Of a stretch of DNA of 64,000 bases, positions 3,135 through 9,587 are shown one piece after another. The notes below the pieces were generated by a model, which searched no databases, had not been told where the DNA came from, and worked only from the letters and a program-made list of their open reading frames with translations. Each line of letters starts with the position of its first letter. Position 1 is the first letter of the stretch. The translations under genes and the position numbers were made by a program. Source of the DNA: Gemmatimonadota bacterium (GTDB lineage Bacteria > JBHIER01 > G020348925). The stretch is taken from contig CP070758.1 of NCBI GenBank assembly GCA_020348925.1, positions 124,001-188,000 of the forward strand, in the 5' to 3' direction.

Positions 3135-4160
3135 ATGGGTGCAAAAGTCGCAATAGTCGGATACGGGACCATCGGGAAAAGGGTCGCAGACGCAGTCGCT
3201 CTGCAGGATGATATGGAAATAGCCGGTGTGGTCAAAACCCGGGTTTCCTTTGAACTCAGTGTCGCAAAGCAGAAGGAGTATCCAATATATGCCAGCGATC
3301 AGAAGAGTCTGTCACTCTTCAGGGGTGTTGGGATTGACGTTCAGGGACGGGTCGAAGAGCTGTTGAAGAGAACGGACATTGTCGTCGATTGTACCCCGAA
3401 ACCTATTGGGGCCAAGAATCGAGAATCATTGTATGAGCCCTATAAAATGAAGGCGATCTATCAGGGAGGCGAGAAAGCGAGTGTGAGTGAGGTCTCTTTT
3501 GTGGCCCAGTGTAATTATAAGGAGGCTTTCGGCAAAAATCATGTACGGGTTGTGAGCTGTAATACGACCGGTATGTCGAGAACGCTCTACGCGCTCCATC
3601 AGGCTTTTGGGATCAAACGGGCCAGAGCGACGCTGGTACGGCGGGGGACGGATCCCGGACAGGTGAAACGGGGACCGATCAATGCCATCGTTCCAACCTT
3701 TGAACTGCCGTCGCATCACGGGCCGGATGTGCGGACCGTCATTCCTGAGATCGAAGTGTTCACAACCTCTCTGGTGGTGCCGACGACGATTATGCACATG
3801 CACGCCCTGAGCGTGCGTCTGGAGAAGGAGGCGACCACGAAAGACGTGCTGGACGTTTTTGCCAATACCCCCCGGGTCAGACTGGTCAAAGCCTGGGATA
3901 ATGTGCACTCCACGGCGGCCATCATGGAAATGTCGAGGGATTTTGGCCACCCCAGGGGTGATATGATGGAGATCTGTGTCTGGGAGGAGGGCGTCGGCTC
4001 CTATCACGACGAACTGTTCTACATGCAAGCGGTCCATCAGGAGAGCAATGTGGTTCCGGAAAATGTCGATGCCATACGGGCCATGCTCGAAATAACCGAC
4101 GATCCTGAGGAAAGTATGAAGAAGACGGATGAATCCTTGGGATTGAAACGCTGGTGGTAA
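3135..4160 (+). CDS. Class II (archaeal-type) phosphorylating glyceraldehyde-3-phosphate dehydrogenase
   Basis: [44 protein letters not shown] and [20 protein letters not shown] are archaeal GAPDH signatures. Confidence 0.92.
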
Positions 4161-4178
4161 CCGGGGGAGGTGGGTCCG

Positions 4179-5102
4179 ATGTCTTTGGCCACGAACAAGG
4201 AGATTCAGGCGGACGCACGGCGTGGAGCCTACGCCGTCGGCGCCTTCAATACGAGCAATCTGGAGATCACACAGGCGATCATTGAGGCGGCCGAGGAGGA
4301 GCGATCGCCGGTCATTGTCGCGACGTCCCAGAGTGCTATCGCCTATGCCGGGATCGAGGTGCTTGCCGCTCTTGTCCGGACGATGGCCCAAAAGATCAGC
4401 GTGCCGGTTTCGTTGCACCTGGATCACGGCACCGACTTCGACGCCATTATGGGATGTATACGTCACGGCTGGACTTCGGTTATGTTCGACGGATCCCACG
4501 AGCCCTTTGCGAAGAACGTCTCCGCCACTCAGGAGATCGTGCGGATCGCCCATTCGGCCGGCCTTTCGGTCGAGGCGGAGCTGGGACGGTTGGTGGGGGT
4601 TGAGGATCAGATCTCCGTGAGCGAAAGGGAGGCCGCTCTGACCGATCCGGAAGAGGCGGTCCGGTTTGTCGCGGAGACGGGCTGTGACACGCTGGCCGTG
4701 GCCATCGGAACGTCCCACGGAGCGTACAAGTTTCAAGGGGAAGCGAAGCTCGATTTCGAGCGCTTGGAGATGATTGCCCGAGGGGTTGCCGCACAGCTCG
4801 TTCTCCACGGCGCATCCAGTGTCATACCGGAGATCCTTGAAAAAGCGAATGCCTACGGGGCTCAGCTGTCAGGGGCGAAAGGCGTCCCACCTGAAGATAT
4901 TCAGAGGGCCGTCCACCTCGGCATCACCAAGGTGAATATTGACACGGATCTCAGATTGGCCTTCACCGCGGCGACGAGGGAATTTTTAGGGACGCACCCA
5001 AAAATCTTCGATCCGAGGAAGATCGCCGGTGCGGGCAGAGAGGCCATGAAGGCGGTCATCAAAGCAAAAATGCAGCTTTTGGGAAGCAGTGGGAAGGGGT
5101 AA
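4179..5102 (+). CDS. fba: Class II fructose-1,6-bisphosphate aldolase
   Basis: AVGAFN, LHLDHG, SVMFDGS, VEAELG, AIGTSHGAYK, LVLHGAS, KVNIDTD; RBS GGAGGTG. Confidence 0.95.
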   Translation: MSLATNKEIQADARRGAYAVGAFNTSNLEITQAIIEAAEEERSPVIVATSQSAIAYAGIEVLAALVRTMAQKISVPVSLHLDHGTDFDAIMGCIRHGWTSVMFDGSHEPFAKNVSATQEIVRIAHSAGLSVEAELGRLVGVEDQISVSEREAALTDPEEAVRFVAETGCDTLAVAIGTSHGAYKFQGEAKLDFERLEMIARGVAAQLVLHGASSVIPEILEKANAYGAQLSGAKGVPPEDIQRAVHLGITKVNIDTDLRLAFTAATREFLGTHPKIFDPRKIAGAGREAMKAVIKAKMQLLGSSGKG

Positions 5103-5156
5103 CAGACTATTTTCTTAAAAGTTTCGAGGATTCATTGAGAAGTGAGGTGAAGACGT

Positions 5157-6824
5157 ATGGCTATTCGAGTAGCAATTAATGGTTTCGGCCGTATCGGGCG
5201 GCTCGTCTGTCGGTTGGGGGCAAAGAACTCGAATATTGAGCTCGTTGCCATCAATGACATTGCGGACATTCATACATCCGCCCATCTGCTCAAACACGAT
5301 TCCGTTCATGGGGTTTTTGACGCCGATGTTCGCGTCGAGGATCATGCCATCGTGATCGATGGGATTCCTATTGCCTATCACTCGGAACGGGAACCCGAGG
5401 CTCTGCCCTGGAAACAGATGAAGGCAGAGCTCGTGGTGGAAGCCACGGGGATCTTCAGAAAGAGGGAACAGCTGGCGAAGCATCTGAAGGCCGGTGCGGA
5501 GAAAGTTATCCTGACAGCTCCTGCCAAGGACGCCGTCGATGCGACCATCGTTTTGGGTGTGAACGACGCCCAGGCGAAGCCGGAGTACAAAATTTTTTCG
5601 AACGCCTCGTGTACGACGAATTGCCTGGCACCGGTGCTGAAGGTGATCAACGATCGCTTCTCCATCCGGCGGGGTTTCATGACCACGGTCCACGCCATCA
5701 CCAACGACCAGCGCATTCTCGATGTCTCCCACGCCGATCCCCGGCGGGCCAGGGCCGCGTCCATGTCCATCATCCCGACGAAGACCGGCGCTGCCTCGGC
5801 CATCAAGCTCGTCCTGCCGGAGCTGGAGGGAAAGATGGAGGCCATCGCGATGAGGGTGCCCATTGCGGACGGCTCCAACATCGATGTGGCCCTGGAGCTG
5901 GACAAGAACACGACGGTTGATGAGGTCAATGCTGCCTTTCAGGAGGCGGCCGAGACCGATGTGGCCCACGGGGGATTGAAGGGCATCCTGGAATACTCGG
6001 AAGCCCCATTGGTCTCGGTGGACATTATCGGCAATCCCCATTCGGCCATCTTCGACAGCCTTTCGACCAGGCTCATCGGGGACAATTTCCTGAAGATCGT
6101 CGCCTGGTACGACAATGAATGGGGCTACTCGAATCGGGTCGTGGACCTCATTGAAAAAGTGAGCGGCGAACATATCGTCCATTACCCCGCCTTTCAGGTT
6201 TTTGAGAATCCCATCGAATTTCAGGAATGTGCTCACTGGCTTGACACCTTGGAGGGGGATCGATGTCTTGTCTCTGATATCATTCACAGCATGACGAGAA
6301 ATCAGGATCTGTCCGTGGATGTCGCCCTGAAATTGTTCTCCCACTTCGGGCGGAACAAGGAGGAGTATGCGCTCTACGTGGATTTCGTCAACAAACGCTG
6401 GCGGGTCTTTCAGGAGAAGCTGAAAGAGGGCAAATGGACCTTCCGCGACATTTACAGCCGGACCGGTATCGAGGAGTACATCTCTGAGAAGAAGGCCCCT
6501 ATGGACAGCGCGGAGGATCCGGCCGATGAGATCAGACACCGCATGGAGACGCTCATCAAATTTCTGGATTACGACAAATACCACATCGGTCTGACGGAGG
6601 ACCGGGTCCACTACAACTTTTTGCTGAAGGCCAATCGAGGGGTCATTGTTGACTTTCCATCGCGGGTCTATTCGAAGTTCGCCTGCGGTCAGGTCATCAC
6701 GGAGCCGTCAAGTATCGATTTCCACGAGCGGCAATTCACAGCGGCCTGGGATGAAATTCCGTCGGAATGGAAGGACAAGAAGAACGTCAAAAAATGGCTC
6801 ACCAAGCAGCTGGACAAAATCTGA
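5157..6824 (+). CDS. gap: Class I glyceraldehyde-3-phosphate dehydrogenase with ~220-aa C-terminal extension
   Basis: INGFGRIGR, SNASCTTNCL, WYDNEWGYSNRVVDL; the ORF continues 220 codons past the normal GAPDH end. Confidence 0.93.
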   Translation: MAIRVAINGFGRIGRLVCRLGAKNSNIELVAINDIADIHTSAHLLKHDSVHGVFDADVRVEDHAIVIDGIPIAYHSEREPEALPWKQMKAELVVEATGIFRKREQLAKHLKAGAEKVILTAPAKDAVDATIVLGVNDAQAKPEYKIFSNASCTTNCLAPVLKVINDRFSIRRGFMTTVHAITNDQRILDVSHADPRRARAASMSIIPTKTGAASAIKLVLPELEGKMEAIAMRVPIADGSNIDVALELDKNTTVDEVNAAFQEAAETDVAHGGLKGILEYSEAPLVSVDIIGNPHSAIFDSLSTRLIGDNFLKIVAWYDNEWGYSNRVVDLIEKVSGEHIVHYPAFQVFENPIEFQECAHWLDTLEGDRCLVSDIIHSMTRNQDLSVDVALKLFSHFGRNKEEYALYVDFVNKRWRVFQEKLKEGKWTFRDIYSRTGIEEYISEKKAPMDSAEDPADEIRHRMETLIKFLDYDKYHIGLTEDRVHYNFLLKANRGVIVDFPSRVYSKFACGQVITEPSSIDFHERQFTAAWDEIPSEWKDKKNVKKWLTKQLDKI

Positions 6825-6885
6825 TGTCCCGTGCAGGTGAGGCTGAGAGCACAACCGGAAGGTGCACATGAGGGGTATTCCTGTT

Positions 6886-8085
6886 ATGGCGAAACTCAGT
6901 GTCGATGATATCGAATTGGAGGGTAAGAGAGCCATTGTTCGGGTCGATTTTAATGTTCCTCTGGACGAGGCTGGAAACGTCCGGGACGATACTCGCATTC
7001 AAGCGGCCCTGCCGACCGTCAAGACGATCCTGGACAGAGGCGGGAAAGCCGTTCTCATGTCACATTTGGGGAGACCGAAGGGAACGGTTGTCGAAAAAAT
7101 GAGGCTTGCGCCTGTGGCTGAGAGACTGGGGCAATTGCTCAAGCGGAGAGTGATCATGGCTCCGGATTGCGTGGGGGAAGAGGTGGAAGGGATGGTCTCG
7201 GAGATGAGGCAGGGCGAGGTGCTGCTTCTGGAGAATCTGCGGTTTCACCCTGAGGAGACAACGAACGACGATACGTTCTCCCAACAATTGGCGCGCTTGG
7301 GCGATGTCTATATCAACGACGCCTTCGGCACGTGCCACAGAGCTCACGCGTCCGTCGTGGGGGTGACCCGATACTTCGAGGAGAGGGCGGCGGGCTATCT
7401 GGTGCTCAAAGAGCTCGCCTTTTTGGGCGAGGCCTTAGCAGATCCGAAGAGACCGTTCGTCGCCGTATTCGGCGGGGCAAAGGTCTCGGACAAGATCGGA
7501 GTCATGCACAACCTTATCAAAAAGGTCGACGGCATCCTTGTGGGCGGGGGGATGGCCTTCACCTTTTTGAAAGCCCAGGGTGTGGAGATCGGCACGTCGA
7601 TCGTTGAGGAGGATAAGATTGAAGTGGCGCAGACCATCATGATGGTGGCGGAGTCCTCCGGTGTGCAGGTGCTTCTTCCACTCGATTGTGTGATCGCCCA
7701 GGAGGTCGAGGAGCGCGCTGAGACTCAGGTGGTGAAATTCAATGAGATCCCCTCGGGTTGGAAAGGGCTTGACATTGGACCTTCCACCGCGAGCCTTTTC
7801 AAAAAGGCCCTTCTGTCTGCCAAGACCGTCCTGTGGAACGGTCCTATGGGTGTCTTCGAGCGAGAGCCCTTTGCCGCGGGCACTGAAACCGTGGCCCGGA
7901 CATTGGCGAAGGTGACACAGGAGGGATGTGTCACAGTCGTCGGTGGGGGGGATACGGTCGCAGCGCTGCGTGTTTTCGAATTGAAGGACCGGATGTCCCA
8001 TGTTTCAACCGGTGGTGGTGCGGCGCTCGAATTCTTGGAGGGGAAGGAACTGCCCGGCATTGCTGCCCTCACCGAGAGATCGTAG
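6886..8085 (+). CDS. pgk: Phosphoglycerate kinase
   Basis: RVDFNVPL, LMSHLGRP, LLENLRF, NDAFGTCHRAHAS, WNGPMGVFE, HVSTGGGAALEFLEG. Confidence 0.97.
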   Translation: MAKLSVDDIELEGKRAIVRVDFNVPLDEAGNVRDDTRIQAALPTVKTILDRGGKAVLMSHLGRPKGTVVEKMRLAPVAERLGQLLKRRVIMAPDCVGEEVEGMVSEMRQGEVLLLENLRFHPEETTNDDTFSQQLARLGDVYINDAFGTCHRAHASVVGVTRYFEERAAGYLVLKELAFLGEALADPKRPFVAVFGGAKVSDKIGVMHNLIKKVDGILVGGGMAFTFLKAQGVEIGTSIVEEDKIEVAQTIMMVAESSGVQVLLPLDCVIAQEVEERAETQVVKFNEIPSGWKGLDIGPSTASLFKKALLSAKTVLWNGPMGVFEREPFAAGTETVARTLAKVTQEGCVTVVGGGDTVAALRVFELKDRMSHVSTGGGAALEFLEGKELPGIAALTERS

Positions 8086-8126
8086 GTTTCTGCGTTGTAT
8101 TGTATTGCATGGTCAAGGATTGAAGA

Positions 8127-8897
8127 ATGAGAAAAGCAATCGTTGCTGGCAATTGGAAGATGAACAAGACGCTTGACGAGGCAATAGCATTGGCAAGGTC
8201 CCTGCGCGATCTTCTTGACGCGGTCCACCATGTCGACATGGTGGTGTGTCCGCCGTATCCCACCCTGTCTGGGGTATCGGAAATCCTGAAGGGGAGCCCA
8301 ATCGGGGTGGGCGCACAGAACATGCACTGGGAGTCCCAGGGCGCGTATACCGGCGAAGTGTCGGCCAAAATGCTATTGACAGCAGGATGTCAGTACGTTA
8401 TATTAGGGCACTCCGAGCGCCGTCTTCACTTCGGGGAGACGGATGACGGGGTGAGAAAGAAGGTGGTCGCTGCTTTGAAATCAGGCCTCGTGCCCATCAT
8501 CTGTGTCGGAGAGCGGCTCGATGAACGCGAAGCCGGTCGGACGGAACAGGTCGTTGCAAAGCAGCTCAGGGGAGCAGTCGGGGGGCTGTCGGCGGAGGAG
8601 TTGTTGAGAGGGATCATCGCCTATGAGCCGGTCTGGGCTATTGGGACGGGCAGGGCGGCCACGCCGGAGATGGCGAACGAGGTGCACACCTTCCTTCGGA
8701 GACTGCTCCGGGAATTGCACGGTGAGGGCGTTGCGTCCGCGGTACGCATACAGTACGGCGGCAGTGTTACCGAGGAGAATGCCGCCTCGCTCTTGAGGCA
8801 ATCGGATATTGATGGGGCTCTCGTCGGCGGGGCGAGTTTGAAGGCCGAGTCGTTCGCCGCCATCGTCAGGGCCGGATCGGAACACACAGGAGGTTGA
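8127..8897 (+). CDS. tpiA: Triosephosphate isomerase
   Basis: AGNWKMN, GHSERR, AYEPVWAIGTG, YGGSV, LVGGASL. Confidence 0.97.
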   Translation: MRKAIVAGNWKMNKTLDEAIALARSLRDLLDAVHHVDMVVCPPYPTLSGVSEILKGSPIGVGAQNMHWESQGAYTGEVSAKMLLTAGCQYVILGHSERRLHFGETDDGVRKKVVAALKSGLVPIICVGERLDEREAGRTEQVVAKQLRGAVGGLSAEELLRGIIAYEPVWAIGTGRAATPEMANEVHTFLRRLLRELHGEGVASAVRIQYGGSVTEENAASLLRQSDIDGALVGGASLKAESFAAIVRAGSEHTGG

Positions 8898-9313
8898 ATG
8901 CAGTGTTTGTCGTAATGATTATTTTGCATATTCTTATCAGTGTTTTTCTTGTTCTTGTCGTTCTGCTGCAGGCGAGTAAGGGAGCCGGCTTGGCCGGAGC
9001 TTTCGGCGGTGGTCTTGGGGGAGGGATGGGTGCCGTTTTCGGAGGGCGTGGGGCCGCCCCCTTCCTGAGCAAGGCCACAACGGTTTTGGCCATCGCCTTT
9101 ATGTTGAGCTGTATTGTTCAGTTGAAAATGTCACCGGCGGTGGGCCGGGCACCGCAAAGTGTTATTCAGCGGGAAGCCGAGGAGAAGGCCCGGAGGCAGC
9201 CGGCAGAAGCACTCCCCATGGTCTCTGAGGAGATGCCGGTGGTGACGCCGCCGGTGGAGGAGGTTGAGACCGAGACACAGCCGGCAGCGGCTACGGATAC
9301 GACTCAGCAGTAA
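8894..9313 (+). CDS. secG: Preprotein translocase subunit SecG
   Basis: TM-LLQASKGAGLAGAFGG-...FLSKATTVLA; conserved tpiA-secG-tRNA-Leu synteny. Confidence 0.9.
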   Translation: MNAVFVVMIILHILISVFLVLVVLLQASKGAGLAGAFGGGLGGGMGAVFGGRGAAPFLSKATTVLAIAFMLSCIVQLKMSPAVGRAPQSVIQREAEEKARRQPAEALPMVSEEMPVVTPPVEEVETETQPAAATDTTQQ

Positions 9314-9480: not shown

Positions 9481-9547
9481 GCGTTCCATTGTTATCCAAG
9501 GCCGGGGTGGAAGTGTTTTCTCCGGATCGCAGGATTCAAGGGATACG

Positions 9548-9587
9548 AACCTCCTGGGGATTCCCAATCTCCGGGAGGTTTTCTTTT
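9548..9587 (+). terminator. Second terminator-like hairpin
   Basis: AACCTCCTGGGGA-N7-TCTCCGGGAGGTT followed by TTCTTTT. Confidence 0.55.

Follow-up and report, generated by a model that had tools for sequence, protein, structure and literature searches.

A type I GAPDH with a C-terminal domain of predicted phospholipase D-like fold in the glycolytic operon of a Gemmatimonadota bacterium

The stretch of DNA analysed here (the window; 64,000 nucleotides, positions 124,001 to 188,000 of contig CP070758.1) belongs to a Gemmatimonadota genome that consists of a single 5.04-Mb contig and is referred to as G000. The window contains a glycolytic operon with the gene order gapII-fba-[gap-X]-pgk-tpiA-secG (Table 1). 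Its third gene encodes a fusion protein, GAPDH-X, in which a type I glyceraldehyde-3-phosphate dehydrogenase (GAPDH) ending in ...NRVVDLIEKV is followed by a 220-aa extension, labelled X. A preliminary description of the sequence had noted that the frame stays open for 220 codons beyond the normal end of the enzyme and contains three cysteines. Both observations hold: the fusion is a single open reading frame (ORF) of 555 codons followed by the stop codon TGA at 6822–6824, with the cysteines at X positions 23, 35 and 175. The extension was also said to end about 60 bp before pgk. The start codon of pgk is most likely the ATG at 6886, since the NCBIfam model aligns from residue 1, and lies 61 nt past the stop codon of the fusion.

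Table 1 Features of the fusion gene and the surrounding operon (positions within the window)
Feature	Position	Strand	Evidence
Whole fusion ORF (GAPDH-X), 555 aa + stop	5157..6824	+	co-linear 555-aa ORF in G001
Type I (bacterial/eukaryotic-type) GAPDH domain, aa 1–335, catalytic motifs intact	5157..6161	+	TIGR01534, PF00044, PF02800
X domain, 220 aa, predicted PLD-superfamily fold without HKD motif, no Pfam/NCBIfam model	6162..6821	+	AF2, VIA-align, Foldseek, motif mapping
Short junction/linker, first ~10 residues of X	6162..6191	+	mean pLDDT 59 for X residues 1–10; first strand at X 11–14
Class II (archaeal-type) phosphorylating GAPDH	3135..4160	+	NF003251 496 bits, TIGR01546 454 bits
Class II fructose-bisphosphate aldolase	4170..5102	+	TIGR01859 361 bits > cut-off 343
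Phosphoglycerate kinase (pgk)	6886..8085	+	PGK half of NF010569, E 1.4e-174
Triose-phosphate isomerase (tpiA)	8127..8897	+	TIGR00419 202 bits > cut-off 130.6
secG	8894..9313	+	TIGR00810 70 bits > cut-off 30.85
Strongest terminator-like hairpin, 16 pairs + T run, 3' of secG	9547..9581	+	consensus scan only

Judged by its sequence, the N-terminal part (aa 1–335) is a complete type I GAPDH with catalytic cysteine and histidine motifs. It reached 419 bits against TIGR01534 (cut-off 367.2), with aa 4–330 aligned to model positions 1–330, and Pfam models for both halves of the enzyme were matched, Gp_dh_N (PF00044) at aa 3–102 (E 1.6e-35) and Gp_dh_C (PF02800) at aa 157–318 (E 1.4e-60). The NAD-binding loop NGFGRIGR and the motifs SNASCTTNC and TVHAITNDQ are all intact and do not differ from the consensus of 27 further GAPDHs. 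In the full-length AlphaFold2 (AF2) model, predicted local distance difference test (pLDDT) values are at least 95 across most of the GAPDH domain. The fusion is the only match to TIGR01534 above the cut-off in G000, which has no second type I GAPDH, and a search of this genome for a second copy of X yielded none.

The comparison set for the phylum consisted of G000 and G001, a genome of another species belonging to another genus; all other genomes listed as relatives share with them only the taxonomic rank of domain. The fusion occurs in both genomes, thus also in an independent one, and in G001 it likewise co-occurs with a class II GAPDH. The ORF of G001 also encodes 555 aa and aligns co-linearly and without gaps; the GAPDH domains are 86% and the X domains 70% identical. 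Identity within X is 0.81, 0.86 and 0.54 at the first, second and third codon position, respectively, so that divergence falls mostly on third positions. The ratio of non-synonymous to synonymous divergence (omega; Nei-Gojobori method, NG86) is 0.105 for X (bootstrap 0.061–0.178) and 0.072 for the GAPDH part, with dS near saturation and the exact value accordingly soft. The raw pN/pS of X (0.24, 0.18–0.31) is also well below 1. These codon-level comparisons indicate that X is under purifying selection. The G + C content at third codon positions (GC3) of X, 0.71, equals that of the neighbouring genes (0.69–0.73), and X is therefore not a recent graft. G001 differs in encoding an additional, unfused type I GAPDH of 337 aa between the fusion and pgk (locus L009, 6684–7697), which is 59% identical to the fused enzyme and has no counterpart in G000.

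These data also bear on the question of whether the long frame is an artefact, i.e. the result of a lost stop codon, an assembly error or a functionless, decaying read-through. The fusion is found in only two genomes, both of them metagenome-derived. However, the independent assembly from another genus has the frame without any indel, the third-position bias of the divergence shows selection, and the X domain is modelled with a pLDDT of 91 and has 44 homologues. In addition, the same study includes a second sample in which one contig of 3278 bp (run X2, record 4) spans the junction, covering 6101–6900 with 0 gaps. Because of the G001 frame, the constraint, the GC3 values and this contig, an artefact or decaying read-through is very unlikely, to the point of being almost negligible. 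Runs X3, X5 and X7 contained conserved GAPDH pieces only, evidently from other organisms. The runs matching the window are sediment metagenomes and one estuary metagenome.

A TIGR01534 search of 31 genomes placed all other type I GAPDH frames at 332–395 aa; only those of G000 and G001 were found at 556–557. When aa 336–555 were compared with 410 candidates, only the query itself was recovered as a homologue. An alignment of the X family, searched against a set of candidates of similar length limited to 8000, gave 10 matches, in which GAPDH domains were present only in the fusion itself (weak evidence), and no match among proteins of 1001–2855 aa. Searches for further fusion loci found only G001 among genome contigs and none among metagenome contigs, using very specific patterns that distant fusions would escape. 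As far as searched, the fusion is thus restricted to two genomes of one candidate phylum, with the searches for distant fusions being weak.

The extension had been described as globular and as neither a CP12-like tail nor a phosphoglycerate kinase or triose-phosphate isomerase, and the analysis supports each of these points, with X as a folded, conserved domain. No Pfam match of X was found at E ≤ 10, the sole NCBIfam match was noise (18 bits compared to a cut-off of 225), and a protein atlas search returned only unnamed clusters, at 0.94. An AF2 model of X, calculated from an alignment of 44 relatives, has a mean pLDDT of 91.4 and a predicted template modelling score (pTM) of 0.88, and features a long helix at residues 66–89. 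The Foldseek search with this model gave 12 matches at E ≤ 1e-3, all of which are PLD-like (phospholipase D-like): TrmBL2, bacterial PLD, FAM83 and phosphatidylserine synthase. An exhaustive VIA-align search retrieved 24 chains of the PLD superfamily at Z 7.2–12.6 with 127–181 aligned residues, and the next match followed at Z 5.8. The leading matches were NucT and TrmBL2 (both Z 12.6), the nuclease domain of SauUSI (12.0), FAM83B and Nuc (both 11.7) and TrmB (11.4), so that the non-catalytic proteins TrmBL2, TrmB and FAM83 tie with the nucleases in the fold scores. Based on the predicted model, X has the alpha/beta sandwich fold of the PLD superfamily, which the preliminary description had not foreseen. 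The prediction of a two-copy complex of X gave 0.30 and 0.29 compared to a mark of 0.42 and was used neither for nor against a homodimer.

Sequence relatives of X were collected by running phmmer exhaustively against 1.84 billion cluster representatives, which yielded 44 proteins at E ≤ 1e-3. The best relative was found at E 6.7e-22 with 34% identity. No match reached 1e-30 and therefore the cluster of the fusion itself seems to be missing from the library. X is the C-terminal module in 44/44 relatives, followed by no more than 83 aa. The N-terminal parts fell into a TIR-like BLAST cluster (9/44, including the five best matches) and a cluster of helix-turn-helix (HTH) type (7/44), or contained one to three hydrophobic segments according to a crude Kyte-Doolittle scan (14/44). 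A single protein carries EAD11 in this position (E 7.7e-12), four N-terminal parts were unassigned, and nine relatives, possibly fragments, have little or none. GAPDH was found in none of the 44. To judge from these assignments, the X family elsewhere always lies C-terminal to output modules, namely TIR, membrane helices or XRE-type HTH.

Pfam searches at E ≤ 1e-3 of 46 family members identified CAP12-PCTIR_TIR in five, TIR_2 in two and TIR in one, and HTH_3 was significant in two to three of the HTH-type relatives. With PADLOC, ThsB1 was assigned to one member (E 2.9e-43) and capH to two. An earlier impression that the extension resembles the C-terminal domains of XRE-type regulators is borne out by the HTH-type relatives, but not in its assignment to DUF5753 or DUF6879, neither of which was among the Pfam families listed for the 46 members at E ≤ 0.001 or at E ≤ 1 (25 of 94 listed at E ≤ 1). 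A profile of the nine proteins combining a TIR-like domain with X matched PycTIR (8jsj, E 6.5e-5) and Cap12 (7un8, E 1.2e-3) in the PDB. PycTIR and Cap12 are TIR effectors that are switched on via a fused nucleotide-sensing domain. For these effectors, a preprint may be compared (bioRxiv 10.1101/2022.05.04.490601). The TIR-like domain of the nine nearest relatives features three invariant cysteines (C15, C75 and C79 in the numbering of P0005) and an invariant N-x-x-x-E-x-G motif; the cysteines may constitute a metal site on this TIR domain of the Cap12/PycTIR type.

The canonical catalytic motif of the superfamily, HxK(x)4D...GSxN, is absent from X and from all 44 relatives, and neither X nor its family gave a PLDc match in Pfam. 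The only sequence match of X in the PDB was MitoPLD, at an insignificant E-value of 0.39. In this HMMER alignment, which given its E-value can only guide the mapping, the catalytic H/K/D of MitoPLD correspond to H150/N152/A157 of X, and GSxN corresponds to D164-F-P-S167. These positions vary: H150 is replaced by Y150 in G001, position 157 is A or S across the two fusions, and in the relatives position 150 is occupied by P (17), E (7), D (4) or T (3) and position 152 by K (9, i.e. 9/43) or N (8). Best conserved in the family are R79 (41/42), Y140 (39/44), F192, I97, L144, W196, an acidic residue at 28, R34, K156, Y106, E123 and Y72. The fused X keeps most of the conserved residues (R34, R46, Y72, R79, Y106, E123, Y140, K156, F192, W196 and K206), with exceptions including F188 to H and E28 to D. 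Motif mapping and the fold model together indicate that X is an unnamed branch of the PLD superfamily that is non-catalytic by the canonical mechanism, hence a 'pseudo-PLD'.

If the PLD scaffold of X housed an active site of a non-canonical kind, making it a phosphodiesterase, nuclease or phosphotransferase, GAPDH-X would be a bifunctional protein. The superfamily comprises hydrolases and transferases, and members without the HKD motif can be catalytic, as is the case for the C-domains of polyphosphate kinase (Z 10.3 and 8.6), which have a catalytic role. Among the conserved residues, R79, K156, E123 and Y140 are polar or aromatic, and the protein with EAD11 in front places X at the usual position of an effector. 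However, the equivalents of the catalytic His, Lys and Asn are wholly unconserved, there is one near-invariant residue in 44 relatives, and an enzymatic X would make the TIR- and membrane-type relatives double effectors without a sensor. We consider this alternative quite unlikely.

Additional context is provided by the genomic neighbourhoods of relatives. In a search of whole genomes with a profile of the X family, X was covered in 6/401, i.e. G000, G001 and four others. One genome (G173, locus L022, 5029–11879) contains an HTH-X gene (344 aa) divergent from a complete type II operon of the cyclic oligonucleotide-based antiphage signalling system (CBASS), with a cGAS/DncV-like nucleotidyltransferase (CD-NTase), E1-E2 and JAB proteins and a patatin-like effector; a gene with an Abi_C domain lies two genes downstream. 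The HTH-X protein of this genome may be an X-domain regulator of CBASS. A second group (family f56) is formed by a protein of about 500 aa with a weak HTH_3 match followed by X, which is present in 10/18 genomes. In 8/8 loci read (L012, L013 and L024–L029; two genera), this gene is followed after 0–36 nt by the gene of a phosphatase of the Ppx/GppA family (277–292 aa), a pairing that counts as one observation given that the genomes are kin. In the two loci that were read over a longer distance (L020 and L021), the f56 gene is divergent from an operon of unknown proteins of 109–130, about 193, 194–210 (Yip1 domain), 921–939 and 310–322 aa. Loci of a TIR-X relative (P0012) were sought among metagenome contigs and none was found.

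Taken together, sequence relationships and the fold model suggest that X probably serves the protein as an integral sensing or docking unit. More specifically, we tentatively favour the reading that X, as a module without catalytic activity recruited from conflict or signalling proteins, senses or binds a molecule and thereby regulates the GAPDH, and hold it to fall a little short of an even chance. X would then be an input module, bound permanently to the sole type I GAPDH of G000 by a linker of about ten residues. It would bind a partner or a small anionic or phosphorylated ligand, with a nucleotide-type signal as the likeliest class. Such binding would alter the activity or the assembly state of the GAPDH tetramer and thereby place the glycolytic step under post-translational control. 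A phosphorylated, nucleotide-type ligand is favoured because active PLD scaffolds bind phosphodiesters or phosphate and because relatives of X adjoin CBASS or Ppx/GppA genes or carry TIR domains of the Cap12/PycTIR type. The C-terminus of GAPDH is located on the NAD-binding domain, close to the cleft for the coenzyme, and it is on this basis that GapB and CP12 regulate the enzyme. Due to this location, the attached X could gate the access of the coenzyme or alter the assembly state. The data show the fusion with its conservation and constraint, the fold, the loss of the HKD motif and the domains that accompany X in its relatives; that X binds something, what class of ligand it takes and how GAPDH would respond are what we infer here. 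The ligand-sensing module proposed earlier would be compatible with this explanation. Binding of nucleic acids, considered on the basis of charge, was dropped, as the X of the fusion is acidic (calculated pI of 5.5–5.9).

A narrower form of this reading takes X to be the signal receiver of TIR, membrane and HTH effectors that in this phylum was moved onto the main GAPDH, where a nucleotide-type alarm or second messenger would throttle glycolysis in a CBASS- or Pycsar-like manner. We regard this version as unlikely. If it were true, GAPDH-X would be without precedent among glycolytic enzymes in being gated by a sensor domain of the defence type.

Several observations weigh against X as a sensor or binding module that regulates the GAPDH. 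In the full-length AF2 model the X part (pLDDT 30–58, pTM 0.64, only two aligned rows over X) is uninformative on the packing of X against GAPDH. R79 is the only near-invariant residue, and several of the conserved residues form pairs of opposite charge that are possibly purely structural. The X domains of the nearest TIR-like relatives are basic (pI 9.0–9.5 in 4/5 computed) and that of the fusion is acidic, and therefore the ligand or partner may differ between the fusion and its relatives. The EAD11-X protein would suit X as an effector rather than a sensor. The representatives with TIR or membrane segments are singleton clusters on short contigs, and the fusion itself occurs in two related genomes only.

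A rival explanation is a scaffold, i.e. a dimerising or docking pseudo-PLD that builds higher-order GAPDH assemblies or tethers the enzyme to a protein, a membrane or a polymer without sensing small molecules. Few residues are conserved, partly as charge pairs, and the better structural matches include pseudo-PLDs and single-domain PLD folds (TrmBL2, Z 12.6; FAM83B, Z 11.7; MITD1, Z 5.8). TrmBL2, FAM83 and MITD1 act via binding of proteins or membranes or via dimerisation. GAPDH is an established tetramer, which paired C-terminal domains could cross-link. A scaffold, however, leaves the constant pairing of X with TIR, membrane and HTH modules and its adjacency to CBASS and Ppx/GppA genes unexplained, and apart from the glycolytic genes no conserved partner gene lies beside the fusion. 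We thus regard this explanation as possible, if somewhat doubtful, and retain the regulatory sensor or binding module as the preferred reading.

The position of the fusion in its operon is relevant to a further alternative. The preliminary description had the fused GAPDH working alongside a class II enzyme, and a class II GAPDH is indeed encoded in the same operon. This archaeal-type gene heads a bacterial glycolytic operon, directly 5' of fba and the fused type I GAPDH, and the genes of G001 are arranged likewise (L009, 2560–3612). Between the fusion and pgk (6825–6885), no terminator-like site was listed by a simple scan for the consensus; the sites it listed inside genes are short, with 5–6 pairs. 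The glycolytic genes (3135–8897) have a G + C content of 0.52–0.60 and a GC3 of about 0.63–0.73; the mean G + C content of the whole window (1–64000) is 0.484.

With a class II enzyme available for the bulk flux, the whole protein might be primarily an immune or stress device in which the NAD+-binding GAPDH stands in place of the NAD+-cleaving TIR domain of the nearest relatives, as effector or as NAD sensor of a defence pathway. Both genomes encode the class II GAPDH, G001 also the unfused type I GAPDH, and the TIR-like-X proteins rank first among the sequence relatives of X (E 6.7e-22 to 2e-10). Against this stand the location of the gene in a conserved gap-pgk-tpi operon, its status as the only type I GAPDH gene of G000, and the retention of all catalytic motifs with an omega of 0.07. 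In the stretch examined, no defence genes were identified next to the fusion. We regard an immune or stress device as highly improbable.

Few enzymes are as well studied or as conserved as GAPDH, and a full extra domain on it is unexpected. If X senses a ligand, the fusion would control the flux of central carbon metabolism in a novel manner, and GAPDH activity would provide an easy read-out for finding the ligand of an uncharacterised family of pseudo-PLD sensors with repeated occurrence in defence-type proteins. Even if X is only a scaffold, GAPDH-X would constitute a new GAPDH architecture, and X a new and as yet unnamed branch within the PLD superfamily. In full-text literature searches covering main texts, neither a fusion of GAPDH with a PLD-like domain nor the X family was found to be described, and neither PLD nor EAD11 occurs in the main text of PMC7159879. 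The GAPDH-X architecture appears to be undescribed.

To our knowledge, the regulatory appendages of GAPDH known so far are short tails (GapB, CP12) or N-terminal extensions. Chloroplast GapB and CP12 are the closest precedent in terms of function and resemble the present case in that a type I phosphorylating GAPDH carries (GapB) or binds (CP12) a C-terminal appendage. Their tail is disordered, about 30 aa long and contains a cysteine pair, whereas X is a folded PLD-like domain of 220 aa without conserved cysteines, and there is no sequence relation. A redox switch, as had been considered for the extension, is not supported: two of the three cysteines of X are kept in G001 and none is conserved in the wider family. 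A redox tail of the GapB-CTE/CP12 type was rejected, with C35 lost in G001 and C23 and C175 unconserved in the family.

With respect to the overall fold, the single-HKD nucleases Nuc (1bys), NucT (6ehi) and Zucchini/MitoPLD are the best matches of X (Z 11.7, 12.6 and 10.2–10.6, respectively). X is about 60 aa longer than the matched nuclease chains of about 150–160 aa, and the nuclease motif is absent. The DUF1669 domain of FAM83 proteins (5lzk, 4urj and 5qhm; Z 11.7 and 10.4) likewise has a PLD fold. In this domain catalysis has been lost and it serves as a docking module. It differs from X in being eukaryotic, in having other partners and in lacking sequence similarity.

By eye, DUF5919 (PF19319), a C-terminal domain of actinobacterial HTH regulators, shares with X a similar strand-turn-strand element and a C-terminal helix with an F..F..W pattern. 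An hhalign comparison of the X family with 16 DUF5919 sequences covered 18 columns in the last helix (E 0.061, match probability 0.9%), the DUF5919 alignment being nearly clonal, and a six-frame search of G000 and G001 with PF19319 gave no match. A DUF5919-containing protein is single-copy and highly conserved in 61/61 genomes of one large-genome family (217–296 bits; L060, L063–L091), where the domain lies at the extreme C-terminus of frames that are open for at least 416 aa.

In terms of architecture, the TIR-STING protein Cap12 and PycTIR, which are sensor-coupled effectors of CBASS and Pycsar, are analogous to the TIR-like relatives, in which X occupies the place of the signal-sensing domain. 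The fold of X is unrelated to STING, SAVED and cyclic nucleoside monophosphate-binding domains, and its partner in the window is GAPDH instead of TIR.

TrmB and TrmBL2 (2f5t, 3qph and 5bpd) offer a likeness at the level of the fold, as they carry a non-catalytic PLD-like fold on another module (Z 12.6, 11.4 and 11.0; Foldseek E 8e-5). In these regulators of sugar metabolism, the PLD-like fold serves sensing or oligomerisation. In TrmB, the sugar is held chiefly by an additional barrel subdomain at the C-terminus. The match to the TrmB-type chains is confined to their PLD-like part (residues of about 105–244), X ends with the PLD-like fold, and no sequence similarity was detected, with no match in Pfam. 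According to PMC11023807, TrmB regulates gapII in haloarchaea. TrmB acts on transcription, whereas X is located on the enzyme itself.

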